From assembly GCA_947085095.1 (NCBI GenBank), contig CAMTVD010000021.1:1-48803 (forward strand): a DNA stretch of 48,803 nt, read 5' to 3'. Made by a program: the position numbers and the translations under genes. This DNA is from an uncultured Thermus sp. (lineage in GTDB: Bacteria; Deinococcota; Deinococci; Deinococcales; Thermaceae). Shown here one piece after another: positions 18,309-31,362 of this stretch (positions are counted from its first letter, which is position 1; every line of letters begins with the position of its first letter). Below the pieces are notes generated by a model. The model was given only the letters and a program-made list of their open reading frames with translations, was not told the DNA's origin and did no database searches.

Positions 18309-19339
18309 TGCGGCTTCTTTCCTTCCGCCAAAGGCATTTCCGCAACCTAGCCATGGCCGAGTTCCGCCCTCCCCCAGGCCTCTTCGCCGTGGTGGGGGGG
18401 AACGCCCAGGGGAAGACCAGCCTTCTTCTGGCTCTGCACCTGGCCCTGGGCGGCGAGGTGCGGGGGGCCCTGGGCGACCTGGTGCGCTTCGGAGAGAAGG
18501 AGGCCTGGCTCCAGGTGGAGGCGGAGACGGAGCTGGGGGTCTATAGGGTGGAGCACAGGATCGCCCCAGAAGGGCGGGAAATCCGCTTAAACGAAAAGGT
18601 CGTGGGCCTCAGGGCTCTCTACGAGCTCCCCGGGTCGGTCCTGGTCCTTCCCGAGGACGTGGAGGTGGTCCTGGGCCCCAAGGAGGCAAGGCGGGGTTTT
18701 TTGGACCACCTCCTCTCCCGCTTCTCCCGGCGCTACGCTGCGCTTCTTTCCGCTTACGAGAGGGTTCTCCGCCAGCGGAACGCCCTTTTGAAGGCGGGAG
18801 GGAATGGTCTATTGGTCTGGGACCAGGAGCTTTCCCGCTACGGGGAGGAGATCATGGCCCTGAGGCGGCGCTTTCTCAAGCGCTTCCTGCCCCTTTTTCA
18901 GACGATTCACCGGGCCCTGGCCCCGGGTGAGGCCGGGCTTAGGTTAGAGGAAAGCGTGGCCGGGGACTTCCTCCAGGCCCTAAAGGAAAAGCGGGAAGAA
19001 GAGCTACAGAGGGGGCAGACCCTTCTCGGCCCCCACCGGGACGACCTGGTCTTCCTCCTCCAGGGCCGTCCCGCCCACCGCTTCGCCAGCCGGGGGGAGG
19101 CCAAGGCCCTGGCCCTGGCCCTACGCCTGGCGGAGCACCGCCTCCTCTCCGAACACTACGGCGAGCCCCCCCTCCTCCTCTTGGACGAGTGGAGCGAGGA
19201 GCTGGACGAGGCCCGGAGAAACGCGGTCTTGGCTTACGCCAAGGAGCTCCCCCAGGCGGTCCTGGCCGGGCTTCTGGCCCCGGAGGGGGTGCTGGTATGC
19301 TCGGTGCAAGGGGGGGTGGTCCTGTGCCCTGGCGGCTAA
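18308..19339 (+). CDS. recF: DNA replication/repair protein RecF
   Basis: FRNL, GGNAQGKTS Walker A, QRNALLK, GPHRDDL, ASRGE, LLLDE; ATG overlaps the MFS stop. Confidence 0.94.
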   Translation: MRLLSFRQRHFRNLAMAEFRPPPGLFAVVGGNAQGKTSLLLALHLALGGEVRGALGDLVRFGEKEAWLQVEAETELGVYRVEHRIAPEGREIRLNEKVVGLRALYELPGSVLVLPEDVEVVLGPKEARRGFLDHLLSRFSRRYAALLSAYERVLRQRNALLKAGGNGLLVWDQELSRYGEEIMALRRRFLKRFLPLFQTIHRALAPGEAGLRLEESVAGDFLQALKEKREEELQRGQTLLGPHRDDLVFLLQGRPAHRFASRGEAKALALALRLAEHRLLSEHYGEPPLLLLDEWSEELDEARRNAVLAYAKELPQAVLAGLLAPEGVLVCSVQGGVVLCPGG

Positions 19340-20082
19340 AGGAGGTCATCCCCGAGGCCTTAAAGCGGGCTGGGGGAAAGGAGCGGCTCAAAAGGGGGCT
19401 GGTGCTGGCCGCCTGGCGGGAGGTGGTGGGGCGGGAGCTTGCGAAGATGACGGAGGCGGTGGCCCTCGAGGAGGGTACCCTCCTGGTGCAGGTGCCCGAC
19501 CCCGTGGTGGCCCACCAGCTCACCTACAGCCGCCTGGCCCTCCTCAAGCGCTACGAGGAGCGCTTTCCCGGGGTGGTGAAGGAGATTCGTTTCCAGGTGG
19601 GTAGGGTTGAGTCCCAAGCGGGGGCGGGAGACAAGCCCCCATCCCCGGGGCACCTCCTCGAGGCCGGCCGCAAGGCCCTGGCCCTGGCGCAAAAGGCCCC
19701 CCCGGAGCTAAGGGAGCCCGTGGCCCGGGCCGCCCTGGCCCTCTTCCGCCGCCAGAAAGGAGACCCCTGCCCCATCTGCCAGGCCCCCAGCGAAGCCCAC
19801 CCCTGCGCCACCTGCCGCCGCCTTCTGGAAGACCCGGTGGTGCGCAAGGAGGTGGAGCGCCTCAAGCGCGGGAAGCCCACCGGCCTCCAGGGGGAGGCCC
19901 TCTTGGTGGCCCGGCACCTTGCCAGGGAAAAGCTTCTTCAAGAGATGCGGGACCTCTACCCAGAGGTCCTGCGGGAGGAGGGCCTGAGGCCCCTCCTCGA
20001 GGACCTGGCCCGGCGCTTCCAAGCCCTCTTCCCCGAGGAGCCCCTCCCCGAGGGGGTGCGTAGCCTCCTGAAAGGGCCCTAA
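19324..20082 (+). CDS. DUF721/DciA-family protein with Zn-finger extension
   Basis: Follows recF; AWREVVG..LAKMT..GTLLVQV..QL pattern; CPIC...CATC. Confidence 0.8.
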   Translation: MPWRLKEVIPEALKRAGGKERLKRGLVLAAWREVVGRELAKMTEAVALEEGTLLVQVPDPVVAHQLTYSRLALLKRYEERFPGVVKEIRFQVGRVESQAGAGDKPPSPGHLLEAGRKALALAQKAPPELREPVARAALALFRRQKGDPCPICQAPSEAHPCATCRRLLEDPVVRKEVERLKRGKPTGLQGEALLVARHLAREKLLQEMRDLYPEVLREEGLRPLLEDLARRFQALFPEEPLPEGVRSLLKGP

Positions 20083-20112
20083 AGAAAAACCCCGCCTCTT
20101 TGGGAGACGGGG
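20081..20112 (-). terminator. Intrinsic terminator, probably the native terminator of the tRNA-Glu/Val operon displaced by the element
   Basis: Minus strand CCCCGTCTC-CCAAA-GAGGCGGGG followed by TTTTTCTTT, just downstream of the duplicated tRNA 3' end. Confidence 0.8.
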
Positions 20113-20119
20113 CACGGAC

Positions 20120-20164
20120 TGGTGGGCGGCAGAGGATTTGAACCTCTGGCCTCTCGCTTGTAAG
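20120..20164 (-). repeat. att site: displaced 3' half of tRNA-Val (anticodon loop to CCA)
   Basis: 39/45 identical to 27875-27919, with a perfect 15-bp core CCTCTCGCTTGTAAG. Confidence 0.92.
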
Positions 20165-20269
20165 ACGGGCCAAAAATGGCCGCTATCATGCGGAAATGCC
20201 CTTCTGGAGGTGGATTTCTCCGATGCGCTTTTCTGGAACTTACTACAATAGCCGGCCATTTTCGGGCCC

Positions 20270-20293
20270 ATAGACCGGCTGATAAACCGGCTG
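20270..20293 (+). repeat. Putative integrase arm-type site, left end
   Basis: ATAGACCGGCTGATAAACCGGCTG (tandem 12-mers), identical to 27802-27825. Confidence 0.75.
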
Positions 20294-20332
20294 GTGTTGG
20301 AATGGTTCCCTCTATTGAGGGGCCGAGCTACC

Positions 20333-20527
20333 TCAGAACTTTTTCGGTAAACCCGCCTGCTTGAGCACGGCGTTGGCGGTGTGGCGGGATTTTATCCTCC
20401 CGTCCACCACGAACTTGCGCCCGGTGAGGGGGCTGTACCAAATCTCGTGGTCCCCCTTGCCCTGACGCACGGGGTAGCAACCCGCCTCCCGAAGTAGGCG
20501 CTTGACCTCGGGGGTGTAATCCGCCAT
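20333..20527 (-). CDS. hicA: HicA-family toxin (mRNA interferase)
   Basis: 64 aa, basic; L..AG...RQGKGDHEIW and final VLKQAGL fit the HicA pattern. Confidence 0.88.
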   Translation of the reverse strand: MADYTPEVKRLLREAGCYPVRQGKGDHEIWYSPLTGRKFVVDGRIKSRHTANAVLKQAGLPKKF

Positions 20528-20748
20528 CAGGCCAGGGCTAGGGGGCGGGTGGCCTCGAGGTGGAGCTCCACCGGGGGCTCCACCCCCACCCCGTTCTCCT
20601 CAAGGAGCTCCGGCACCACCACCGCCAGCTTGGCCAGAAGCTCGTCCAGGGTGGGGGCTTCCGTAGCGAGGCCGGGCACGTCTTCGCTTTCCGCCACCCA
20701 CACCCCCGCCTCCCCGTCCCAAAAAGCCCGTACCTTGAGGGCGCGCAT
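20527..20748 (-). CDS. hicB: HicB-like antitoxin (DUF1902 type)
   Basis: WDGEAGVWVAESEDVPGLATEAPTLDELL; acidic; stop overlaps the hicA start (TGATG). Confidence 0.82.
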   Translation of the reverse strand: MRALKVRAFWDGEAGVWVAESEDVPGLATEAPTLDELLAKLAVVVPELLEENGVGVEPPVELHLEATRPLALA

Positions 20749-20785
20749 ACCCGTAGGATACCGCAAGAGGGCGTATGCTGAGGGT

Positions 20786-21496
20786 ATGGCGGTTCCCGAA
20801 ACCCAGCTTAGGAGGGCCGCCTGGGCCCTTTTCTGGGTGGCGCTTCGGGAAGAGGCCCCCGAGGTCCTGGAGGACCTGAAGGGGCTCCTACCCCTCTACC
20901 GAGAGGCCGCCCCCGCCATAAAGGTCCTGGGCGTGTGGAGCTGGGCGAGCCTGGAGAGGGCCGCCGGAACCGCCAGGGTGTTCCGGGAAGTCCCCCCTCA
21001 CGCCATCCCCTCAGGCTGGGAGCCCGTGGTGGGGAGGGCGGGGCAGGCCCTCCTCCACCTCCGGGAGGCCCTTCTGGCCTGGGCCGGGAGGTGGGGGCTC
21101 ACCGGCCCCGAGGAGCCCCTGGACGCGGGCCTGCAGAGCCTGGCCCTTTGGGCCGCCGACCCCGGCCTGCCTTTCGGCTTCGCCCTTGTGGAGGGGGTGG
21201 TGGACAAGGCCGGGCCGGGGCTGGAAATCCCGCCCTTTGACCCCCTGGCGGAAGACTGGGCCGCCTTTGAGGCCCGGGCCAGGGAGCGGTTTGAGGCGTG
21301 GCTTCGGGCCTACCGGGACTGGGCCCAGCTCCAGGCTGAGCGCCCGGAGCTGGCGGTCCATGCCCGTTGGCTGGCCTTCCGCAAGCGGGGGCTTTCCTAC
21401 CGGCAGATCGCCGATGGGGCCCGGGAGCCCGTGGGGGAGGATGCCGTGCGCCACGGGGTGGTGCGCCTGGCCAAGCTCCTCGGGCTGAGGATGTGA
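20786..21496 (+). CDS. Hypothetical element protein with C-terminal helix-turn-helix (putative regulator)
   Basis: ATG 20786 is 6 nt below TATGCT; C-terminus GLSYRQIAD...EDAVRHGVVRLAKLLG is HTH-like. Confidence 0.7.
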   Translation: MAVPETQLRRAAWALFWVALREEAPEVLEDLKGLLPLYREAAPAIKVLGVWSWASLERAAGTARVFREVPPHAIPSGWEPVVGRAGQALLHLREALLAWAGRWGLTGPEEPLDAGLQSLALWAADPGLPFGFALVEGVVDKAGPGLEIPPFDPLAEDWAAFEARARERFEAWLRAYRDWAQLQAERPELAVHARWLAFRKRGLSYRQIADGAREPVGEDAVRHGVVRLAKLLGLRM

Positions 21497-21575
21497 ACCG
21501 AAGCACATGACCGGACACGGGTAGCCCCTGCTCGTGTCCTGGACTTCCTCCGCCTTCTCCCGCCACCCTGGGGGC

Positions 21576-21791
21576 ATGAACGCTGATAAGCGGCTCCTGA
21601 AGGTTGAGGAGGTTAGGCGGCTGGTCGGTGAGGACCGTTTGGGGAGGGACGCGGCGTATGCGTTAGCCCGCCGGTTCGGGGTGCGGCTTGGCAAGCGCCT
21701 CCTGGTGCCGTCCCGGGTGGTGGAGGCCATCCTGGAGGGGCGCTTGGGGGAGCTTGAAGCGGAAGCCCGCCGTGGCGGGGCGGGCCGCTAG
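21576..21791 (+). CDS. Excisionase/AlpA-like small DNA-binding protein
   Basis: 71 aa; LLKVEEV..L...LGRDAAYAL....GVRLGKRLLVP resembles Xis/HTH_17 winged helix. Confidence 0.7.
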   Translation: MNADKRLLKVEEVRRLVGEDRLGRDAAYALARRFGVRLGKRLLVPSRVVEAILEGRLGELEAEARRGGAGR

Positions 21792-21800
21792 GGGGTGGGC

Positions 21801-21971
21801 ATGGAGCGCTCCTCCATTCAGGGGCCCGATCTGGACAGCATCATCTTGGCGCTCATCCAGGTTTTAGCGGAGATGCTGACCCCCGCTGGACGAGTTGACG
21901 CGCTTTTGGCGCTGTCCCGCCGGGTTGACGTGGACATCGTTCGGGAGGAGGGCGGCGATGAGCGCCGTTGA
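21801..21971 (+). CDS. Small hypothetical protein (56 aa, not in the ORF track)
   Basis: MERSSIQGPDLDSIILALIQVLAEMLTPAGRVDALLALSRRVDVDIVREEGGDERR; fills the gap between the xis-like and prim-pol genes. Confidence 0.55.
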   Translation: MERSSIQGPDLDSIILALIQVLAEMLTPAGRVDALLALSRRVDVDIVREEGGDERR

Positions 21972-22854
21972 GGCCGCCAGCCGCTACATCAACCTGGGCT
22001 ACCCGGTCCTGCCCTTGGCTCCAGGAGAGAAGCGCCCCCACCCTCGCCTGGTGCCCCATGGGCTGAAGGAGGCCACCCTGGACGAGGCCACCATTACGCG
22101 CTGGTGGCGGGCCTGCCCGGAGGCGGGGGTGGGCATCTTGCCTCCTGAGGACGTGGCGGTCCTGGACGCGGACGGGCCGGAGGTGGTGGCGGCCCTTCTC
22201 TCCTACTGGCCGGAGCTGGAGGGAGCCCCTCTGCAACGCACCCCAAGAGGCGGGGGGCACTTCTTCCTGAGGGTGCCCCCCCACCTGGCCGCCTCCTTGC
22301 GCACGGGGCGGGCCAAGGGGCTTTCCGAGCTAGGCCCGGTAGACGTGAAGGGGCTGGGGCGGGGCTACTTGGTGGCCGCCCCTACCCGGCTCTCCGTCGG
22401 CTCCTACGTGTGGGGGCGGCCTTTGAGGGCCCCGGGGGAGCTTCCTCTTTGCCCCGAGGCCCTGCTTGGGGCCCTCCTCCCCCCGCCCCCGCCGCCGCCC
22501 CCGGAAGTACGCCCCACCCGGGGAGGGGCCAGCCCCAAGCGGCTCCATGGGCTCCTTGAGTGGGCGTGCCGGGAGGTGGCCGCCACCCCCCCGGGGAACC
22601 GGCACAACCGGCTCCTGGCCCTGGCCCGGCTCATGGGGGGCTACTGCCACCTGGGCCTTGACCCTGAGGAGACCGCCCACGCCTTGGCCCAGGCCGGGGT
22701 GGAAGCGGGGCTTCCCTGGGGGGAGGCCCTGAGGGCGGCGCGGGACGGGGTGAGGTACGGGCTCCTGGGCCCTCTTGACCTCCCCGTCCCAACGCCCCCC
22801 GCACCCCGCACCTACCGGGCCCGCGTCTACGCCCGCGTGAGGAGGTGGGCATGA
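21958..22854 (+). CDS. Bifunctional DNA primase/polymerase (Prim-Pol, AEP superfamily) with PriCT-like C-terminus
   Basis: GYPVLPL..GEKRP...HG..EAT, GVGI, VLDAD, RTPRGGGHFF, GYLVAAPT; C-terminal GNRHNRL; GGAGG SD. Confidence 0.88.
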   Translation: MSAVEAASRYINLGYPVLPLAPGEKRPHPRLVPHGLKEATLDEATITRWWRACPEAGVGILPPEDVAVLDADGPEVVAALLSYWPELEGAPLQRTPRGGGHFFLRVPPHLAASLRTGRAKGLSELGPVDVKGLGRGYLVAAPTRLSVGSYVWGRPLRAPGELPLCPEALLGALLPPPPPPPPEVRPTRGGASPKRLHGLLEWACREVAATPPGNRHNRLLALARLMGGYCHLGLDPEETAHALAQAGVEAGLPWGEALRAARDGVRYGLLGPLDLPVPTPPAPRTYRARVYARVRRWA

Positions 22855-24590
22855 CCTTCCAGGACCTTCTCAAGCGGGTGGAAGGGGCCAAGGCGGAAAC
22901 CCTTCCCGCCCTCCTCCCCGAGCTCTTCAAGGGCATCTACGAGGGAGGCCTCCTGGATACCGAGGTGGAAGCTCTCTTCCTGGGCCTCAAGAAGAGGACC
23001 GGGGTGAGCGTGGGAGCCCTCCGTAAGGACTGGGCCCGCTACCGGGCCACGCGGGAGGAGGAGACCCGGAAGCAGGCCGCCCCGGCCCTTACCCCCGAGG
23101 CCCGGGAGGCCGCCCGGGAGCTCTCCGAGGACCCCGCCCTGCTCCACAAGGCCATTCGGGCCATAGGGGCCCTTGGGGTGGTGGGAGAGGAAGAGAACCG
23201 GGCCCTCCTGTACGTGGCCCTCCTTTCTGCCAAGACGGAAGCCCCCATCTCCGTCCTGGTGAAGGGACGCTCCTCCTCGGGGAAGTCTTTCCTGGTGAGC
23301 ACCGTGCTAAGGCTCATCCCCCCTCGGGGCTACTACGAGCTCTCCAGTATGAGCGCCAAGGCCCTGGTGTACGCCGACTTGGACTTTCGGCACCGCCACC
23401 TGGTGCTCTACGAAGAGGACGGGCTGAACAACGAGGAAGTGCTCTACCTGGTGCGCACCCTCCTCAGCGAGGGGCAAATCCGCTACCTGACCGTGGAGAA
23501 GTCCCCCCAGGGGCGCATGGTGGCCCGTGAGATCCACCGCCCAGGGCCTACCGCGCTCATCACCACCATGACCAAGGGGCTCACCAAGGAGGACAACGAA
23601 ACGCGCACCTTCAGCCTCTACATGGACGACAGCAAGGCCCACACCCTCCGGGTGGTCCAGGCCTTGGCGGAACAAGAAGCCCTGGGCGCGCGGCCCGAGG
23701 TAGACGTGGCCCCCTGGCACGCCCTCTACGAGGCCCTTCCCCAAGTGGAGGTGGTGGTGCCCTTCGCCCCGGCCATCGCCCGGCTCCTGGAGGCCCAGGA
23801 CCTCCCCGAGGACCTGACCCGGCTCCGCCGGGACTTTGGCCGCTTCCTCACCCTGCTCAAGGTGGTGGCCCTCCTCCACCACGCCCGGAGGGAGGAGCGG
23901 GGCGGGAAGCTGGTGGCCGCTTTGGAAGACTACGCCCTGGCCTACCACCTGGCCGCCCGCCCCCTGGTCCGGAGCGTGCGCACCATAAGTCCCCAGGCCC
24001 TCAAGGTGGCCGAGGCCGTGAGGCGGGTGGTCATGGACAAGGAGGCCGAGGCTGACGCTAAGGCCAAGGGCCAGGAGGGCGGGAGGGAGTTTTGGGCCAC
24101 CCCCTCCGAGGTGGGCCGGGTCCTGAAGTGGGGGCGGCGCACGATCTACCGGTGGGTTGACCTGGCCGAAGAGGGGGGGCTCATTGAGGTGCGCACCGAG
24201 GGGAACCGCAAGAAGCTGTACCCCGTGGAGGACGCGCCCCTGGACGAGGCCGCCTACCGCCTCCTGCCTGAGCCGGAGGAGCTGGCCCGGGAGCTGGGGG
24301 AGGAGCTGGCCTACGTGCACCCCGTGCACGGGGGGTGGGAAAAGAGGCTTCTCTCTTTCCCCCAAACCGCGTGCACAACGCCCGCAAAAAACGCCCCGAA
24401 CCCCGTCCTGAACGGCGAAAACCCTTGTGCACGCCAAGTGCACGAGCGTGCACGCGTGGAGGAAAACTCGCGTCCTGGGGAGGAAAAACCCCGTGCACAT
24501 GAGGAAGTGGCTTTCTCATCGCAAAAACCCGAGGAACGTGCACGCCCCGCGCACGCCCCCCGTGCACGCCCCGGGTGGAGGGAGGTGTAG
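22851..24590 (+). CDS. P-loop ATPase / putative replicative helicase of the element
   Basis: Walker A GRSSSGKS, Walker B LVLYEE, C-terminal wHTH-like segment; ATGA overlap with prim-pol. Confidence 0.78.
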   Translation: MTFQDLLKRVEGAKAETLPALLPELFKGIYEGGLLDTEVEALFLGLKKRTGVSVGALRKDWARYRATREEETRKQAAPALTPEAREAARELSEDPALLHKAIRAIGALGVVGEEENRALLYVALLSAKTEAPISVLVKGRSSSGKSFLVSTVLRLIPPRGYYELSSMSAKALVYADLDFRHRHLVLYEEDGLNNEEVLYLVRTLLSEGQIRYLTVEKSPQGRMVAREIHRPGPTALITTMTKGLTKEDNETRTFSLYMDDSKAHTLRVVQALAEQEALGARPEVDVAPWHALYEALPQVEVVVPFAPAIARLLEAQDLPEDLTRLRRDFGRFLTLLKVVALLHHARREERGGKLVAALEDYALAYHLAARPLVRSVRTISPQALKVAEAVRRVVMDKEAEADAKAKGQEGGREFWATPSEVGRVLKWGRRTIYRWVDLAEEGGLIEVRTEGNRKKLYPVEDAPLDEAAYRLLPEPEELARELGEELAYVHPVHGGWEKRLLSFPQTACTTPAKNAPNPVLNGENPCARQVHERARVEENSRPGEEKPRAHEEVAFSSQKPEERARPAHAPRARPGWREV

Positions 24591-24790
24591 CGTGCGCACC
24601 CCCCGTGCACAAAGCGCCGTGAACCCCGTCCTGGACGGAAAGGGCAATGTGCACGCCGTTTCCGCCCTCCTGGACGGGACTGGCATGGGGGGTGTGCACA
24701 CCCGTGCACACGGCGTGCACATCGGTTTTCGCCGTCCTGGACGGCATTACTGCCCGATTTTGGGCGAGTTGTGCACGCGGTTTGGGGGGG
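24315..24790. repeat. Mirror-symmetric GTGCAC iteron array (candidate replication origin)
   Basis: 15 GTGCAC copies; ~95-bp imperfect inverted arms 24359-24453 and 24694-24790; interspersed CCGTCCTGGACGG palindromes. Confidence 0.8.
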
Positions 24791-24815
24791 ATAGAGGCGC
24801 GCAAAGGAGGACCCC

Positions 24816-25418
24816 ATGACCGGAGGACTGGATGTCCTGGCCATCTCATGGAACCTGGGAAGCCTGCCCCTGACCCGGGAGCAGGGGGGGCTCCTCCTCC
24901 CGGAGGAGGCCCCTGAAGAGGTCTTCCAGGCCGTGCGCCCCCACAAGGCCCGCCTTCTTTGGGCTTTGGAGGATGGGGAGGAGGTGCCTGCCCGGGGGCT
25001 CCTGGAAGACCCCCGCCGCTTGGTGCTCCTCCTTGTGCCCGAGGGCGCGGAAGAAGGGGGCGCGAGCCTGGTGATTTACCCCGAGGGGGAGGAGCCCCCG
25101 CGCCGCTACCTGGTGCCTCCGGGGAACCTGACCCCCTTCCTCCTCTGGTCAGCCCGCCACGAGCCCAGGCCGCGCCGGGTGTGGTGCGGGGGCGTGAAGG
25201 GGCGCTGGGCCGTGGACGTGGAGGTACCCCTTGAGGCCGCCCTGGAAGCGCCCTTCCTCGGGCACGTCCTGGCCGGGCCCGAGGAGGGGGTGGAGGACTA
25301 CCTTCGCGCCCTCCGCGAGGGGACGACCGGGGGCAAGGTGCGGCTTTGGCGGCCTGGGGAGGAGGTGCTGACTCTTGGCGTGGAGGAGGCGCTGGAGCTG
25401 GCCGCGCTCCCCTTCTGA
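24816..25418 (+). CDS. Hypothetical element protein
   Basis: 200 aa, strong SD AAGGAGG, host-like codon usage. Confidence 0.75.
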   Translation: MTGGLDVLAISWNLGSLPLTREQGGLLLPEEAPEEVFQAVRPHKARLLWALEDGEEVPARGLLEDPRRLVLLLVPEGAEEGGASLVIYPEGEEPPRRYLVPPGNLTPFLLWSARHEPRPRRVWCGGVKGRWAVDVEVPLEAALEAPFLGHVLAGPEEGVEDYLRALREGTTGGKVRLWRPGEEVLTLGVEEALELAALPF

Positions 25419-25427
25419 GGAGGTGCC

Positions 25428-25733
25428 TTGAGCAGGGTTTTTGGAAACCCACCACCGTTAGAAAGGCCCGGAAGGGCCCGGGGGGAGGAGGTGGAGGCCT
25501 TCCCCTCGGGGGCGCTGGAGGAGGGGCCTGGCCCCCGTGCAACCCCCTTGCGTGAAGTGGCCGCGTGGGTGGGGTGCTGGTGGCCGCACGCCAGGTTTGC
25601 GGGGCTGACCTCCCGGGGCTGGCCCTACCTCGGGGGCCGCTTCCTCAAGGAGGGCTACCCCACCCCGTGGGGGATTGTTTGGGTTGACGGCCCCAAGACT
25701 TGCTGGGCCTGGCAACCGAGGGAGGTTTATTGA
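25428..25733 (+). CDS. Hypothetical element protein
   Basis: TTG start with GAGGAGGT SD; stop overlaps the next ATG. Confidence 0.6.
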   Translation: MSRVFGNPPPLERPGRARGEEVEAFPSGALEEGPGPRATPLREVAAWVGCWWPHARFAGLTSRGWPYLGGRFLKEGYPTPWGIVWVDGPKTCWAWQPREVY

Positions 25734-25987
25734 TGGGAACGCGTTTGAGGAAGGACTTGAGCAGGAGCAGGAGCGCCCTCATGCGGGCCCTCCGGCGTAG
25801 CGAGGAGCTTCTGGCCCACCACGACCCCGGCACGGCCCTCAAGGCGGCCCACGCCATCGCCGCCCTGGCCGGGGCCGTGGTCAAGCTGGTGGAGGTGGTG
25901 GACCTTGAGGACCGCCTTCAGGTCCTTGAGGCCCGCGTGAAGGAGCTGGCAGGTGATAGAATGGCCACAAGGAGGAAGACGGCATGA
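25733..25987 (+). CDS. Small helical/coiled-coil protein (possible small-terminase-like)
   Basis: GGAGGT SD; ALKAAHAIA...EVVDLEDRLQVLEARV. Confidence 0.7.
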   Translation: MGTRLRKDLSRSRSALMRALRRSEELLAHHDPGTALKAAHAIAALAGAVVKLVEVVDLEDRLQVLEARVKELAGDRMATRRKTA

Positions 25988-26178
25988 AGCGGCTGGAGCG
26001 CATCCTGGACAAGCTTGAGGACCTTCTGGAAGGGGGCGGGCCCGTACTCATCAGCGTTTGCTACGAGGGGGCCGATGGCACCACCCTCTACCCCACCCCC
26101 GAGGAGAAGGCCAGGGCCATCCGCGAGGCCCTGGAACGGGGGCGGGACTTCGCCGTAGCGTGGGCGCGGGAAGCCTGA
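25984..26178 (+). CDS. Small hypothetical protein with N-terminal coiled coil
   Basis: MKRLERILDKLEDLL; AGGAGG SD; ATGA overlap. Confidence 0.7.
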   Translation: MKRLERILDKLEDLLEGGGPVLISVCYEGADGTTLYPTPEEKARAIREALERGRDFAVAWAREA

Positions 26179-26202
26179 GGCTCTTCCCCGTGGGGCCAGG
26201 GG

Positions 26203-26267
26203 GTTGTGCGCGAAACAAATCTTTCGCGAACAACTAACCTGGGGGCCTCCCCTGGTCCTGCTATAAT
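26203..26267 (+). promoter_or_regulatory. Palindromic operator and extended -10 promoter of the integrase operon
   Basis: GTTGTGCGCGAAA-N6-TTTCGCGAACAAC (12/13 match), then TGCTATAAT 6 nt above ATG 26274. Confidence 0.6.
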
Positions 26268-26273
26268 GGCCCT

Positions 26274-26501
26274 ATGCCGCGAGGTCAGAACCTGAAAAGC
26301 ATCCCCCGGGAGGAGCGCGCGCGCCGCTTGGGTTTGGTGCCCATACCCCGCGGGGAGGCAGGCAGGAAGGTGTACATCCGGGCCCGGGAGAAGGCCCTGG
26401 CCCTCCTGGAGGCCCTACCTCCCCAGGAACGGGGCCGGGTGGTGGAGGCGGGCCTCGAGGCCCTGGGCTACCTAAGGGGGGAGGAGGGCCGTGAACCTTA
26501 G
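26274..26501 (+). CDS. Small basic protein, ribbon-helix-helix-like putative regulator
   Basis: RKVYIRA strand followed by two helices; leaderless promoter. Confidence 0.65.
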   Translation: MPRGQNLKSIPREERARRLGLVPIPRGEAGRKVYIRAREKALALLEALPPQERGRVVEAGLEALGYLRGEEGREP

Positions 26502-26622
26502 GCGGCTTTGGTCCTGGCTTCGCTTCGCCAAGATGCTGGCCCGGGGGCGGGTGGGCAAGAGGTGGGCCATCCGCCGGGTGAAGTGGCTTTGGCGGGGTAG
26601 GAAGAGGCGGAGGTGGTGGTGA
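26491..26622 (+). CDS. Unannotated 43-aa Arg/Trp-rich peptide
   Basis: GGAGG SD plus GTG; MNLRRLWSWLRFAKMLARGRVGKRWAIRRVKWLWRGRKRRRWW; stop overlaps the integrase ATG (TGATG). Confidence 0.5.
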   Translation: MNLRRLWSWLRFAKMLARGRVGKRWAIRRVKWLWRGRKRRRWW

Positions 26623-27797
26623 TGAAGCGGCGCGGTAGGGGGGGCGGTAGCGTTTTCTACCACGAGGGCAAGGGGAAGTGGGTAGCCCAACTTGCCTGGG
26701 TAGACCCCGCTACGGGCCGCAAGCTGAAGCGGGAGAAGCATTGCGCCACCAGGAGGGAGGCCGAGCAGGCCCTGGCCCAAATGGTGGCCGAACAGGCCCG
26801 GGGGCTCCTCATGGACCCCTCCAGGCTCACCACAAGGGAGTTTGCCCTGGAGTACCTGAAGCGCCTGGAGCGGGAGGGGCTGAGGCCGAACTCCATCCGC
26901 CTGGCCCGGGGGGAACTGGCCTACGCCATCCCTTCCCTCAAAGACCCCAAGGCTCATGACCCCCTAGGCCGCATGCGCCTCCAGGAGGTGAGGCCGGTGC
27001 ATGTGCGGGCCGCCGTGGACCGGGTGATGGAAGCGGGCTACGCCCCCCGCACCGTGGGCCGGGTGCTCATGCGCCTCAAGGCCCTCTTCCGGGAGGCCCT
27101 ACGCCTGGAGCTGGTGGCCAGGAACCCCGCGGAAGCGGTGCGGGTGCGCCTGCCTAAGGGGGAGAAGGCCGCGAGGGCCCTGGAGCCTGAGGAGGTGGCC
27201 CGGCTCCTGGAGGCCGCGGAAGCCTCCCGGTCCAAGGACATGGCCCTCCTCCTCCGGCTCATGCTGGAAACCGGGTTGCGCCGGGGGGAGGCCCTGGCCC
27301 TGCAATGGCGGGACGTGGACCTGGAGCGGGGCGAGGTGCGGGTGTGGCGGGCATGGGCCAAGGTGGGAAGCAGGGGCGCTTTCACCCCCCTGAAAACCCC
27401 CACGGCCAAACGGGTGGTGCCCCTCCCCCTCGGGCTCCTGCGCCGCTTGAAGGCGAGGAAAGAGGAACTTCTGGAGCGCCTGACCTTGGAGGAGGTAAGC
27501 GCCCTCCACCTGGTGGGTGGGGTGAAGCCGGTAGACCCTGACGCTTTCAACCACTACCTGCGCCGCCTGGCAGAAAGGGCGGGCCTGGGCCGGGTTAGGG
27601 TCCATGACCTCCGGCACACCTGGGCCACCCTGGCCCTCTCCCGGGGCATCCCCCTGGAGGTGGTGAGCGAGCGCCTGGGCCACGCCTCCCCCACCATCAC
27701 CCTGAACGTCTACCGGCACCTCCTGGAGGAGGAGCGCCGGGGGTATGTGGTGGACCTGGAAGACCTCCTCTTCCCCGGCCCCCGGGCCGTTTCGTGA
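26622..27797 (+). CDS. int: Site-specific tyrosine integrase
   Basis: N-terminal arm-binding segment (RRGRGGGSVFY..KWVAQ), TGLRRGE, HDLRH, LGHA, catalytic Tyr in NVYRH; next to the tRNA att site. Confidence 0.96.
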   Translation: MKRRGRGGGSVFYHEGKGKWVAQLAWVDPATGRKLKREKHCATRREAEQALAQMVAEQARGLLMDPSRLTTREFALEYLKRLEREGLRPNSIRLARGELAYAIPSLKDPKAHDPLGRMRLQEVRPVHVRAAVDRVMEAGYAPRTVGRVLMRLKALFREALRLELVARNPAEAVRVRLPKGEKAARALEPEEVARLLEAAEASRSKDMALLLRLMLETGLRRGEALALQWRDVDLERGEVRVWRAWAKVGSRGAFTPLKTPTAKRVVPLPLGLLRRLKARKEELLERLTLEEVSALHLVGGVKPVDPDAFNHYLRRLAERAGLGRVRVHDLRHTWATLALSRGIPLEVVSERLGHASPTITLNVYRHLLEEERRGYVVDLEDLLFPGPRAVS

Positions 27798-27801
27798 ACC
27801 G

Positions 27802-27825
27802 ATAGACCGGCTGATAAACCGGCTG
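27802..27825 (+). repeat. Putative integrase arm-type site, right end
   Basis: Identical 24-mer to 20270-20293. Confidence 0.75.
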
Positions 27826-27831
27826 AAGGGA

Positions 27832-27857
27832 TTCCCCCCACGCTACCGTGGGGGGAA
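27832..27857. terminator. Hairpin between convergent int and tRNA-Val
   Basis: TTCCCCCCACG-CTAC-CGTGGGGGGAA perfect 11-bp stem. Confidence 0.7.
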
Positions 27858-27874
27858 GCATTGTGTCCTGGAGC

Positions 27875-27951
27875 TGGTGGGCGGCGTAGGACTTGAACCT
27901 ACGACCTCTCGCTTGTAAGGCGAGCGCTCTGACCAGCTGAGCTAGCCGCCC
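27875..27951 (-). tRNA. tRNA-Val (TAC)
   Basis: GGGCGGCTAGCTCAGCTGGTCAGAGCGCTCGCCTTACAAGCGAG...GGTTCAAGTCC...CCA cloverleaf. Confidence 0.97.
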
Positions 27952-27952
27952 A

Positions 27953-28027
27953 TGGTGACCCCAGGGGGAATCGAACCCCCGTTTCGGCCTTGAGAGGGCC
28001 GCGTCCTGACCGCTAGACGATGGGGCC
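27953..28027 (-). tRNA. tRNA-Glu (CTC)
   Basis: GGCCCCATCGTCTAGCGGTCAGGACGCGGCCCTCTCAAGGCCG...GGTTCGATTCC...CCA cloverleaf. Confidence 0.97.
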
Positions 28028-28058
28028 GTGCAAAAGGCCAGCGCCCACGCGCTTATCC

Positions 28059-28087
28059 AGTCTAGGCCCTTTGGACTACGCCCGCAA
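28059..28087 (-). promoter_or_regulatory. Sigma-A promoter of tRNA-Glu/tRNA-Val
   Basis: TTGCGG, 17 nt, TAGACT on the minus strand. Confidence 0.65.
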
Positions 28088-28094
28088 GCCCCGG

Positions 28095-28122
28095 AAAACC
28101 TAGCCCCCCAAGGCGGGGGGCT
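28095..28122 (-). terminator. Intrinsic terminator after tRNA-Lys
   Basis: AGCCCCCC-loop-GGGGGGCT followed by AGGTTTT on the minus strand. Confidence 0.7.
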
Positions 28123-28126
28123 GAGC

Positions 28127-28202
28127 TGGTGGGCCGTGCAGGATTCGAACCTGCGACCTACCGATTAAAAGTCGGTTGCTCTGCCAGCTGAGCTAACGGC
28201 CC
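28127..28202 (-). tRNA. tRNA-Lys (TTT)
   Basis: GGGCCGTTAGCTCAGCTGGCAGAGCAACCGACTTTTAATCGG...GGTTCGAATCC...CCA cloverleaf. Confidence 0.97.
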
Positions 28203-28214
28203 AAGGCCTTCCCG

Positions 28215-28243
28215 ATTATAGGGGGCTAAGAGGGCCTGCGCAA
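28215..28243 (-). promoter_or_regulatory. Sigma-A promoter of tRNA-Lys
   Basis: TTGCGC, 17 nt, TATAAT on the minus strand. Confidence 0.75.
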
Positions 28244-28927
28244 GGTTTCCATGATGAAGAGGCCCAGGGCCTCCTCCCGGGCCCGGGTCCTCAAGCTTTC
28301 TAGGTCAAAGGGGCGGGGGGCCAGGGGCTCCAGGGCCTCCTGGGGCAGGGGGGCCGCCTGCAGGAAGGCGAAAAAGCCCGGGTCCGTCCACGGGGGGACC
28401 CAGGCCCCGCTGCGGCAGAGGAAGACCCGGTGGAAGACCCCCTCCACCCTTCCCCCGGGGTCCACCTCCCGCCTTAGGGGCACCATGGGCCCTGGCTCCA
28501 GGGCCGGGTCCCGCCAGGGAGGGTAAAAGACCCGCAGGCGGGCCCCCAGGCGGTGGTAGAAGACCATCCAGTCGTCGCAGGCGGGAAGCTCCCCCAAGGG
28601 CCTGTACCCCGCGTCGTGGTGAGCGTCAAAGAGGACCACCTCCTCCACCCCCTGGCGCACCCTCTCGTGGAAGGCCAGGGCGTTGGAATCCGCATAGTAG
28701 AGCACCGCCCCCGGGGCAAAGGCAAAGCGCTCCCAAAACCCCTCCCACCCCCGGGCCTCGGGCAGGGGCAGGCCCCGGAGGAAAAAGGCCAAGGCCCTTT
28801 CCTCCCAGGCCTCCAGGAGATAGTAGGGGGTCTCAAAGTGGGCCCAGGCGAAAAGGGGGGCCAAGGGGTCCCTGGGGTCTTGGGGCACGGGGAAGAAGTA
28901 GTCAAAGTCCACCACCAGAAGCCGCAC
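28226..28927 (-). CDS. Hypothetical protein, arginase/UPF0489-like metallo-fold
   Basis: VDFDYFF and FDAHHD putative metal-binding motifs. Confidence 0.75.
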   Translation of the reverse strand: MRLLVVDFDYFFPVPQDPRDPLAPLFAWAHFETPYYLLEAWEERALAFFLRGLPLPEARGWEGFWERFAFAPGAVLYYADSNALAFHERVRQGVEEVVLFDAHHDAGYRPLGELPACDDWMVFYHRLGARLRVFYPPWRDPALEPGPMVPLRREVDPGGRVEGVFHRVFLCRSGAWVPPWTDPGFFAFLQAAPLPQEALEPLAPRPFDLESLRTRAREEALGLFIMETLRRPS

Positions 28928-28983
28928 GCCTCAAGAAATAGCAAAGCCCCCCGCCCCCAGGGCAGGGGGCCTGGGTAGGAGCG

Positions 28984-31362
<2,379 letters not shown>

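Follow-up and report, generated by a model that had tools for sequence, protein, structure and literature searches.

A compact Thermus integrative element, very probably of the ICETh2 family, inserted in a chimeric tRNA-Val gene

The 48,803-nt contig stretch CAMTVD010000021.1 of an uncultured Thermus sp. (assembly GCA_947085095.1), called the window here, carries a 7,755-bp insert between two copies of the 3′ half of a tRNA-Val gene. The genome carrying the window is referred to below as its own genome. We consider that the insert as a whole is probably best explained as an ICETh2-family integrative element of Thermus that is not conjugative by itself. New here are a 40/47 terminal repeat accompanied by a chimeric tRNA, a helicase-like protein (Hel) with a predicted minichromosome maintenance (MCM)-like fold, the covariation of Hel with an adjacent repeat motif, and a 200-amino-acid (aa) protein whose modelled fold has no neighbour. 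Already known are the ICETh2 family itself and, as a hypothesis in the accessible text of bioRxiv 10.64898/2026.04.20.719267, the idea that such elements are phage satellites.

The insert is bounded by two tRNA-derived features:

20120..20170, minus strand: left att repeat, the displaced 3′ half of the native tRNA-Val(TAC), T-stem CAGAGG/CCTCTG (repeat family D2; alignment)
27875..27951, minus strand: tRNA-Val(TAC), chimeric (ARAGORN; alignment to tRNA-Val genes; Rfam tRNA, 74.3 bits)

ARAGORN placed tRNA-Val(tac) at 27875-27951 on the minus strand, with tRNA-Glu and tRNA-Lys following it directly, and the partial copy of its 3′ half at ~20120-20170 lies 7,755 nt upstream of the gene. The two copies form an imperfect repeat, equal at 40/47 positions (or 43/51), in which the exact blocks are the acceptor end (11 nt) and the anticodon stem and loop (15 nt, CCTCTCGCTTGTAAG). 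Mismatches are concentrated in the T-stem and are compensatory, with CAGAGG/CCTCTG on the left and GTAGG/CCTAC on the right. A distal repeat of the tRNA 3′ end of ~47 nt, a feature of ICETh2-like elements, is present in this imperfect form.

Empty sites were searched by comparing the left flank with 32 genomes of the genus, and the flank gene and tRNA fragment were contiguous in many of them. An intact tRNA-Val(TAC)-tRNA-Glu pair comes immediately after the flank gene in all three genomes examined (G018, G008 and G017). Their alignments to the left and right junctions overlap only over the ~50-nt tRNA 3′ half, which identifies the 7.7 kb separating the repeats as an insert. An earlier reading made from the letters alone (the sequence-only reading) had proposed a 7,755-bp insert between repeats of the tRNA-Val 3′ half; the repeats at both ends and the three empty sites, which belong to other species, bear this out. 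The gene left of the insert (19189-20082) encodes a DciA-domain protein (E 3.5e-19) and is a chromosomal housekeeping gene.

The insertion site and gene content make it very probable that the element belongs to the ICETh2 family. According to the accessible text of PMC7693054 (Garcia-Quintans et al., 2020), ICETh2 of T. thermophilus HB27 measures 11,276 bp and occupies a tRNA-Val site with an identical 47-nt direct repeat; the integrase Int2 and an excisionase lie beside the tRNA, and Ppol, the commercial TthPrimPol, is followed by Hel (TTC_0657). The same text reports homologues in several Thermus and Meiothermus strains, with HicAB in some of them. In the window element, 14 candidate open reading frames (ORFs) were searched against Pfam, PHROG, NCBIfam and PADLOC, and their G+C content at codon positions 1, 2 and 3 (GC1/2/3) was checked. 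Four of the 14 reached the curated Pfam cut-off (HicA_toxin, DUF1902, Prim-Pol and Phage_integrase), and these four are listed here with Hel:

26613..27797, plus strand: tyrosine integrase (int), 394 aa (Phage_integrase, E 2.4e-29; phrog_1, E 1.6e-74)
21958..22854, plus strand: Ppol, archaeo-eukaryotic Prim-Pol, 298 aa (Pfam Prim-Pol, E 1.3e-26; exactly 298 aa in the representative library)
22851..24590, plus strand: Hel, predicted MCM-like AAA+ ATPase with C-terminal winged helix, 579 aa (PF27228; AlphaFold (AF2) model; Foldseek; VIA)
20333..20527, minus strand: hicA toxin, 64 aa (Pfam HicA_toxin, E 1.7e-9, 38.1 bits against a cut-off of 27; phrog_353 'toxin', E 1.4e-14)
20527..20766, minus strand: antitoxin candidate in hicB position, DUF1902, 79 aa (Pfam DUF1902, E 2.2e-28)

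The tyrosine integrase gene stands beside the tRNA-Val 3′ end on the opposite strand. On inspection by eye, the catalytic set R, K, HxxR, H, Y appears to be represented in the integrase at the expected places, and Ppol has a DxD motif and a conserved His. The hel start overlaps the ppol stop, giving the order Ppol then Hel. At the far end, a HicA-family toxin gene adjoins and overlaps its candidate antitoxin gene, the DUF1902 stop and the hicA start having base 20527 in common; DUF1902 is presumably a HicB-type antitoxin domain. HicA is 90-92% identical in six related loci.

Sibling elements were found in nine genomes of other species (G031, G014, G030, G002, G003, G016, G015, G023 and G010), and the window element is syntenic with all nine. 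Identity to the window ranges from 72 to 88% for the integrase, is ~75% for Hel where it is present and 50-54% for Ppol. Some siblings carry hicAB, modules are shuffled among them, and element sizes run from ~6.5 to 20 kb. Hel has a patchy distribution, occurring in 5/61 related genomes with the own genome counted. The founding ICETh2 paper is said to be that of Baquedano et al. from 2020, which reportedly catalogued homologues in Thermales. The window Hel and AAS81005.1 of T. thermophilus HB27 share 75% identity, and this accession would correspond to TTC_0657; the published range, as far as the accessible text gives it, is 72-95%. The sequence-only reading had suggested a poorly described Thermus satellite family, a view that has to be given up: ICETh2-like elements, HicAB-bearing ones included, were catalogued in Thermales in 2020 (PMC7693054, accessible text). 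The element adds a member to a described family and does not found a new one.

Several relatives show signs of decay or lie in the own genome. The siblings in G023 (C6:52745-54453, with one in-frame TGA) and G031 (C39:793-2426) have hel broken into two frames, which may reflect decay or sequencing error. A decayed relative of ~1.3 kb in G018 (C4:1650282-1651503, L040) consists of an integrase 3′ fragment, hicB-hicA and left-end sequence. The own genome contains an integrase 69% identical to that of the window adjoining tRNA-Val(CAC) (C28:1-6000, L042), and an integrase (42%) with Ppol (54%) beside a tRNA-Pro/Gly/Arg cluster (C22:32000-46000, L041).

The tRNA gene that now borders the element is a chimera. 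In alignment A2, its 3′-terminal 38 nt match tRNA-Val(CAC) at every position, and its anticodon loop and 5′ half are of the native TAC type; it follows that two isoacceptor genes are joined in one. The displaced left remnant has the same T-arm type as the intact tRNA-Val(TAC) at the empty sites of G018, G008 and G017. The chimeric gene scored 74.3 bits with the Rfam tRNA model, compared with 70.5 bits for the native gene of G018. The sequence-only reading had pointed to other Thermus genomes as a place to look for the same module at tRNA-Val. Siblings do occur in nine of them, and in 7/7 related integrase loci with a tRNA adjacent (G030, G003, G015, G014, G031, G010 and contig C28 of the own genome; loci L012 and L014 were left out of the scan) that tRNA is tRNA-Val(CAC), not TAC.

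An attP carrying a pure tRNA-Val(CAC) half was considered and rejected: the TAC anticodon loop is present at both junctions, so that a CAC-type T-arm and a TAC-type loop must have been united in attP beforehand. A 34-nt hybrid of this kind was found in 4/32 genomes of the genus. G002 holds it twice, in a Lys-Glu-Val(TAC) cluster followed by the same arm repeat (described below) before the contig end, and in a second copy that is a remnant elsewhere. The hybrid also occurs in tRNA-Val(TAC) of G005 (C2:184041-184157, L067), with no arm repeats adjoining, and once in G003 (C1:60541-60574); these two could be a native allele or the scar of an earlier element. From these alignments we infer that the element represents a sub-lineage that switched tRNA-Val isoacceptor.

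A second pair of terminal repeats, unnoticed in the sequence-only reading, lies inside the tRNA-derived ones, and a hairpin separates the right-hand copy from the tRNA:

20270..20293, plus strand: arm-type tandem repeat, 2 x 12 nt (ATAGACCGGCTG / ATAAACCGGCTG), ~100 nt inside the left core (repeat family D14)
27802..27825, plus strand: arm-type tandem repeat, the same 24 nt, ~50 nt before the right core
27834..27855, no strand assigned: G+C-rich hairpin between int and the tRNA 3′ end (read from the sequence)

The 20-nt core of the arm repeat is found in the window only at the left end and at 27806-27825, against an expectation of 0.01, and 0/100 shuffles gave two copies. In a circular form the arm repeats would lie on either side of the core, some -50 and +100 nt from it, in the manner of integrase arm sites, and the paired 24-nt repeats are likely to be arm sites for the integrase N-terminal domain. 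The hairpin is likely to serve as a terminator for both int and the tRNA. It resembles the hairpin that follows tRNA-Val(TAC) in element-free loci of G030, G023 and G022, which suggests that the attP region may have originated as a copy of a tRNA-Val locus, terminator included.

The ATPase Hel (579/581 aa) had only sub-threshold matches in the local Pfam library, and a PDB sequence search returned 0 matches at E <= 1. In a large protein collection, Hel and most of its homologues carry the precomputed tag PF27228. Among 8,000 candidates scored, 699 were homologues at E <= 1e-5, many of them fused to zf-CHC2 primase fingers or to MarR-type winged helix-turn-helix domains. One protein, P0038, is a natural fusion of Prim-Pol with PF27228; in the two fused homologues closest to Ppol (P0181 and P0183), the helicase is of another type and not Hel.

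The AlphaFold model of Hel, built with 30 homologues, had a mean predicted local distance difference test score (pLDDT) of 82.6 and a predicted template modelling score (pTM) of 0.73, with residues 502-579 below 50. The top Foldseek matches were MCM subunits (E 4e-9), and comparison with MCM by VIA gave Z 23.1 and a root-mean-square deviation of 3.2 Å over 294 residues, within model residues 67-477. The alignment covers the AAA+ tier and C-terminal winged helix of MCM only; where MCM has its N-terminal OB-fold tier, Hel has a short helical N-terminus. G144 and K145 of the Walker A motif and E188 are invariant in the 30 homologues. Because of these fold matches, we take Hel to be, as modelled, an MCM-like AAA+ ATPase with a C-terminal DNA-binding domain. 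Its last ~80 residues, disordered in the model, are encoded over a repeat array:

24315..24796, no strand assigned: putative origin, GTGCAC repeat array, 15 repeats within two 103-nt inverted arms

The motif GTGCAC occurs 21 times in the window, 15 of them in 24315-24776; shuffled sequences contained 6.5 +/- 2.3 and 0/100 reached 21, which agrees with the iteron array claimed in the sequence-only reading. The inverted arms (24351-24453 and 24694-24796, 103 nt each) are 78% complementary (I1), and the array overlaps the coding sequence of the disordered tail and extends to the next gene. The GTGCAC cluster is absent from sibling elements, which carry other motifs in the same place, at or after the 3′ end of hel: CGTGCAAG in 10 copies in G023, and CGCGCACG in 6-9 copies in G031, G015 and G030. 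In 5/5 loci this stretch ranked first of all 800-nt windows for 8-mer repetition, with 8-10 copies compared with a median of 3-4.

Comparison of the Hel proteins showed a matching pattern. The C-terminal part (residues 327-500) is 91-96% identical among the three CGCGCACG elements and 73-74% identical between these and G023, and that of the window is 60-64% identical to all four compared siblings; the N-terminal ATPase part of the window Hel is 93.6% identical to that of G031. Motif class therefore tracks the Hel C-terminal domain, since elements sharing a motif are alike there and the window is divergent. This is suggestive of a C-terminal domain that reads the adjacent repeats, the two being exchanged as a unit. 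We regard it as somewhat more probable than the contrary that Hel acts at the array as an initiator-helicase.

The gene following the array encodes another protein of the family:

24816..25418, plus strand: 200-aa ORF, conserved in the family (17 homologues; pLDDT 93.5, pTM 0.89)

Its 17 homologues in the large collection are all unnamed, and it is present in G014 and G010. The model is highly confident, and no Foldseek match was obtained at E <= 0.001 in PDB or BFVD; the best VIA score among 48,161 representative chains was Z 3.1. Residues 1-55 weakly resemble beta-hairpin docking domains, and an Atlas hint of a TubC_N-like N-terminus (score 0.86), itself a weak lead, is in line with these docking-domain rows. 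On the basis of the model, the protein may represent a new fold; it may be a replication accessory, an anti-phage factor or a hijacking factor.

The remaining ORFs are small:

20783..21496, plus strand: 237-aa ORF, possible regulator (GC1/2/3 0.79/0.53/0.87; Atlas score 0.97 to unnamed clusters)
21576..21791, plus strand: 71-aa ORF, candidate Xis/AlpA-like DNA-binding protein (a 71-aa protein in the protein collection, 28 homologues, no Pfam family)
21795..21971, plus strand: 58-aa ORF (GC1/2/3 0.73/0.42/0.76; no homologue in related loci)
25428..25733, plus strand: 101-aa ORF, weak coding signal (GC1/2/3 0.64/0.64/0.78; 51-61% identical in G031, G014 and G003)
25700..25987, plus strand: 95-aa ORF (GC1/2/3 0.69/0.48/0.81; 46-51% identical in G023 and G010)
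25984..26178, plus strand: 64-aa ORF (GC1/2/3 0.72/0.48/0.85; no homologue in related loci)
26274..26501, plus strand: 75-aa ORF upstream of int (GC1/2/3 0.79/0.50/0.83; 48-56% identical in G014, G023, G010 and G031)
26491..26622, plus strand: micro-ORF, 43 aa, very basic, conserved with int (82-98% identical in five sibling elements)

The 237-aa ORF had no match in Pfam, PHROG or NCBIfam, and its only homologue among related loci is in G014 (34%). The 71-aa ORF is 52-74% identical in seven related loci and stands upstream of ppol each time. Pfam matches of the 75-aa ORF were at chance level only. Between the micro-ORF and its G014 counterpart there are 10 nucleotide differences, seven of them at third codon positions, and a single amino acid change. 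Codon-position G+C backs most ORFs and is weak for the last ~90 helicase codons, where the array overlaps, for 25428-25733 and for 26491-26622. The starts of ppol (21958), hel (22851) and the 71-aa ORF (21576) agree with proteins in the collections.

The gene order given by the sequence-only reading was confirmed for hicAB, Prim-Pol, the ATPase, the repeat array, the small ORFs and the integrase, and its frames are indeed all open in the window copy; the labels 'HTH protein' (helix-turn-helix), 'xis/alpA-like' and 'RHH-like' (ribbon-helix-helix) found no family match. None of the 14 ORFs matched a head, packaging, tail or lysis PHROG, and the Pfam scan of the same ORFs returned no relaxase or type IV secretion system (T4SS) family, in agreement with the earlier statement that capsid, tail, relaxase and T4SS genes are lacking. 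NCBIfam and PADLOC gave nothing above cut-off and no defence-system model for the 14 ORFs. Rfam detected three tRNAs only in the window; a sigma-70 promoter scan gave 0 sites, and the terminator-like sites (9 compared with 6.4 expected) were uninformative.

The state of the element in natural populations was assessed on contigs of four metagenome runs from one study (X1-X4) over positions 19000-29000. These runs contain 0.88-0.98 of the words sampled from the window, and two of them may be its source. Contigs of X1, X2 and X3 bridge the left junction. The long-range joints listed in X1-X4 had sides of 20-30 nt, in repeats or other organisms. On a 12.3-kb contig of X3, the element carries a 257-nt deletion (26538-26794) between 11-nt direct repeats. 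The integrase thereby loses its start and codons 1-61, which presumably encode the arm-binding domain; by arithmetic, integrase codon 62 is joined in frame to codons 1-15 of the micro-ORF.

We propose the following course of events for an ICETh2-family element of this kind. Its tyrosine integrase would recombine an element-borne tRNA-Val 3′ half with the chromosomal tRNA-Val(TAC), a step for which the evidence is largely in hand, through a crossover placed inside the 15-nt block common to both junctions, over the anticodon stem and loop. The native 3′ half would thereby be displaced by 7,755 bp, and the tRNA would end in element DNA followed by the element's own hairpin. Once excised, the circle may be replicated by the MCM-like Hel, whose winged-helix C-terminal part, variable among the elements, would bind the GTGCAC array located at the 3′ end of hel and beyond it. 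Prim-Pol might serve as accessory primase, or might hinder the entry of incoming DNA as reported for ICETh2 in the accessible sources, and hicAB might stabilise or defend the element. Spread must use a host or helper route because there are no transfer or virion genes: natural transformation, transjugation as for ICETh2, or possibly a phage could provide it. We judge the chance of spread by transformation or transjugation to be about even, and spread as a phage satellite to be improbable.

Several observations weigh against this explanation. The repeat matches at 40/47 positions and is identical in ICETh2, and the target isoacceptor is TAC rather than CAC; Ppol is only 50-54% identical to the sibling Ppols. 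The link between Hel and the array is a covariation over three motif classes in five related elements. The excisionase candidates (26491-26622, 26274-26501 and 21576-21791) had no family match. No contig of X1-X4 joins ~20170 to ~27875 or joins the element ends, contigs being a form of data that drops rare forms, and the X3 deletion may mean that part of the population is immobile. For ICETh2, replication after excision is described in the accessible text of PMC7693054 as low or absent and Ppol as dispensable for it; the 'self-replicating' property is therefore not established for the family. On the supporting side, ICETh2 is an experimentally studied relative, and the accessible parts of PMC7693054 and PMC9751324 report that it excises as a circle at 1e-4 to 1e-5. 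They also report that Hel is required for the UV-induced rise of the circle, and that Ppol restricts transformation by environmental DNA.

A phage satellite is a rival explanation that we think unlikely. In this view, excision would be triggered by a Lalka-type myophage (or a different Thermus phage), perhaps by means of the phage's related integrase; Hel and Ppol would replicate the element, helper capsids would package it and the phage would be impaired, with the orphan ORFs as hijacking functions. The only relevant work on Thermus phage satellites found in the literature is bioRxiv 10.64898/2026.04.20.719267, which, in its accessible text, reports that Lalka phages carry Cas12r-CRISPR spacers against Thermus elements of 6-15 kb that integrate at tRNA genes and encode int, ppol and a helicase, describes the integrases of elements and Lalka phages as related, and proposes the elements as possible satellites. 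Spacers were taken from two phage arrays, that of Lalka8 with 8 repeats and that of Lalka27a with 2, and compared with the own genome and every locus retrieved. Spacer 2 of Lalka8 matched the elements of G003, G015, G030 and G002 at 31/32 and that of G016 at 26/26, and the identical spacers 3 and 4 matched G010 at 30/33, which makes 6/9 sibling elements tested and reproduces the claim of the preprint. No match was found in G014, G031, G023 or anywhere in the own genome, and the best alignment to the window element, 22/32, is at chance level; spacer 2 targets a segment immediately upstream of the micro-ORF homologue, and this segment is not shared by the window element. The ICETh2-type family is clearly in conflict with Lalka phages, but CRISPR targeting is a sign of conflict, not of packaging.

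The window integrase is 48-49% identical to those of Lalka8 and Lalka27a, and Ppol residues 221-290 (22618-22827) are 40% identical over 72 aa to the Lalka8/Lalka27a 'primase' (L029:9942-10157; E 6.5e-6), the only protein similarity to Lalka phages besides the integrase. Outside int, no DNA similarity to Lalka8 or Lalka27a was detected, cos-like sequence included; megablast of the element against 50,697 phage records gave nothing even at E 10 and no match of at least 28 nt; and queries with the Lalka major capsid protein and large terminase (TerL) found nothing in the own genome, which is 93% complete. The 7.7-kb size and the layout of integrase, small regulators, primase-helicase module and origin fit a satellite. 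The family-specific markers are lacking: Pfam and PHROG scans of the 14 ORFs gave no homologue of the markers of phage-inducible chromosomal islands (PICIs), capsid-forming PICIs (cfPICIs) or P4 (terS, terL, capsid, capsid-redirecting genes, psu, sid and delta), and no packaging gene was detected (0/14 by PHROG). Seven orphan ORFs possibly leave room for packaging by another mechanism. Distant Hel relatives (34-41% identity, fused to a DnaG-type primase) occur on five IMG/VR contigs of 9-15 kb (L071-L075), all five encoding an integrase and a large terminase; a major head protein is encoded on L071, L073 and L075, and L071 also has terS and HNH. Their occurrence lends the satellite explanation some support; their layout resembles that of capsid-forming satellites, and the window element is without such a layout. 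The relative ICETh2, in turn, is reported in the accessible parts of PMC7693054 and PMC9751324 to move by transjugation and to excise without a phage. We give only a small chance to the idea that ICETh2-type elements, that of the window included, are a new satellite class with no recognisable packaging gene, mobilised by a Lalka-type integrase and replicating with an archaeal-style Prim-Pol and MCM-like module. It is just as doubtful that, in such a class, orphans such as the 200-aa protein hijack or interfere with the helper while the phage counters with its own CRISPR array.

Two further explanations concern the mobility of the element. It is very unlikely to be a decaying, effectively fixed remnant kept for its cargo, with hicAB and, as a barrier to foreign DNA, Ppol. 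The X3 deletion that takes the integrase start, the G018 locus that retains only hicAB and an integrase fragment at a tRNA, and the split hel of G023 and G031 would fit such a remnant; yet all genes are open in the window copy, the catalytic positions of the integrase appear filled by eye, both arm repeats are intact, and the junctions differ in their T-arms, which shows that the element was acquired from another lineage. That it is a self-transmissible integrative and conjugative element (ICE) can hardly be entertained. The published name of the relative, ICETh2, is all that speaks for it. Neither the element nor the rest of the genome yielded a relaxase, coupling protein, T4SS or second FtsK-like translocase, and the element itself has no FtsK-like translocase, coupling ATPase or mating-pore gene by Pfam and PHROG. 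The single FtsK_SpoIIIE match of the own genome lies in a 910-aa frame on another contig, and the DNA translocation system of HB27 sits on a separate element, ICETh1 (PMC9751324, accessible text). We retain an ICETh2-family integrative element, dependent on others for transfer, as the probable explanation.

The element adds a compact, apparently intact member to the family that supplies the commercial TthPrimPol and is now suspected of parasitising Thermus phages. Its chimeric tRNA points to an integrase lineage that moved between tRNA-Val isoacceptors while the tRNA was kept functional, which bears on the evolution of att specificity. An MCM-like Hel with an array that changes together with its C-terminal domain offers a testable model of origin recognition in a family where ICETh2 genetics left replication unclear. 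The conserved 200-aa protein is a candidate new fold, and the int-deletion variant of one sample shows decay in a natural population. None of these details overturns current views.

Like ICETh2, the window element has int beside a tRNA-Val 3′ end, a distal repeat of ~47 nt and Ppol directly followed by Hel, and like other members of the family it has HicAB at the far end and lacks transfer genes, and its hel is followed by small conserved hypothetical genes. It differs from ICETh2 in size (7.7 kb compared with 11.3 kb) and in having no peptidase or transposase genes, from the family in its tRNA-Val(TAC) site with a 40/47 repeat and chimeric tRNA, and from its siblings in its own GTGCAC motif, divergent Hel C-terminal domain and Ppol identity of ~50-54%. 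With the elements targeted by Lalka phages, as far as the accessible text of the preprint describes them, it shares a size within 6-15 kb, int followed by an intact tRNA, Ppol with a helicase, and a Lalka-related integrase; the 42-46 bp partial tRNA copy upstream and the hicBA of one member are also matched. Unlike them, it has no protospacer for the Lalka8 or Lalka27a arrays.

PICIs, cfPICIs and P4-like satellites have in common with the window element an integrase, small DNA-binding genes, a primase and helicase, origin repeats and small accessory genes, a size below 15 kb and integration at a tRNA or other specific site. In contrast to them, it has no detectable terS, capsid, terminase, HNH, psu/sid/delta or capsid-size genes, and no known helper. 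To our knowledge, an archaeo-eukaryotic Prim-Pol with an MCM-like AAA+ protein differs from the usual replication proteins of satellites. A Bacillus cereus prophage carries a primase-MCM, and SCCmec reportedly encodes an MCM-like helicase (Mir-Sanchis, 2016). The window element resembles such modules in coupling an archaeo-eukaryotic primase to a helicase of predicted MCM fold on an integrative element, and differs from them in that its Hel belongs to a different sequence family, PF27228.

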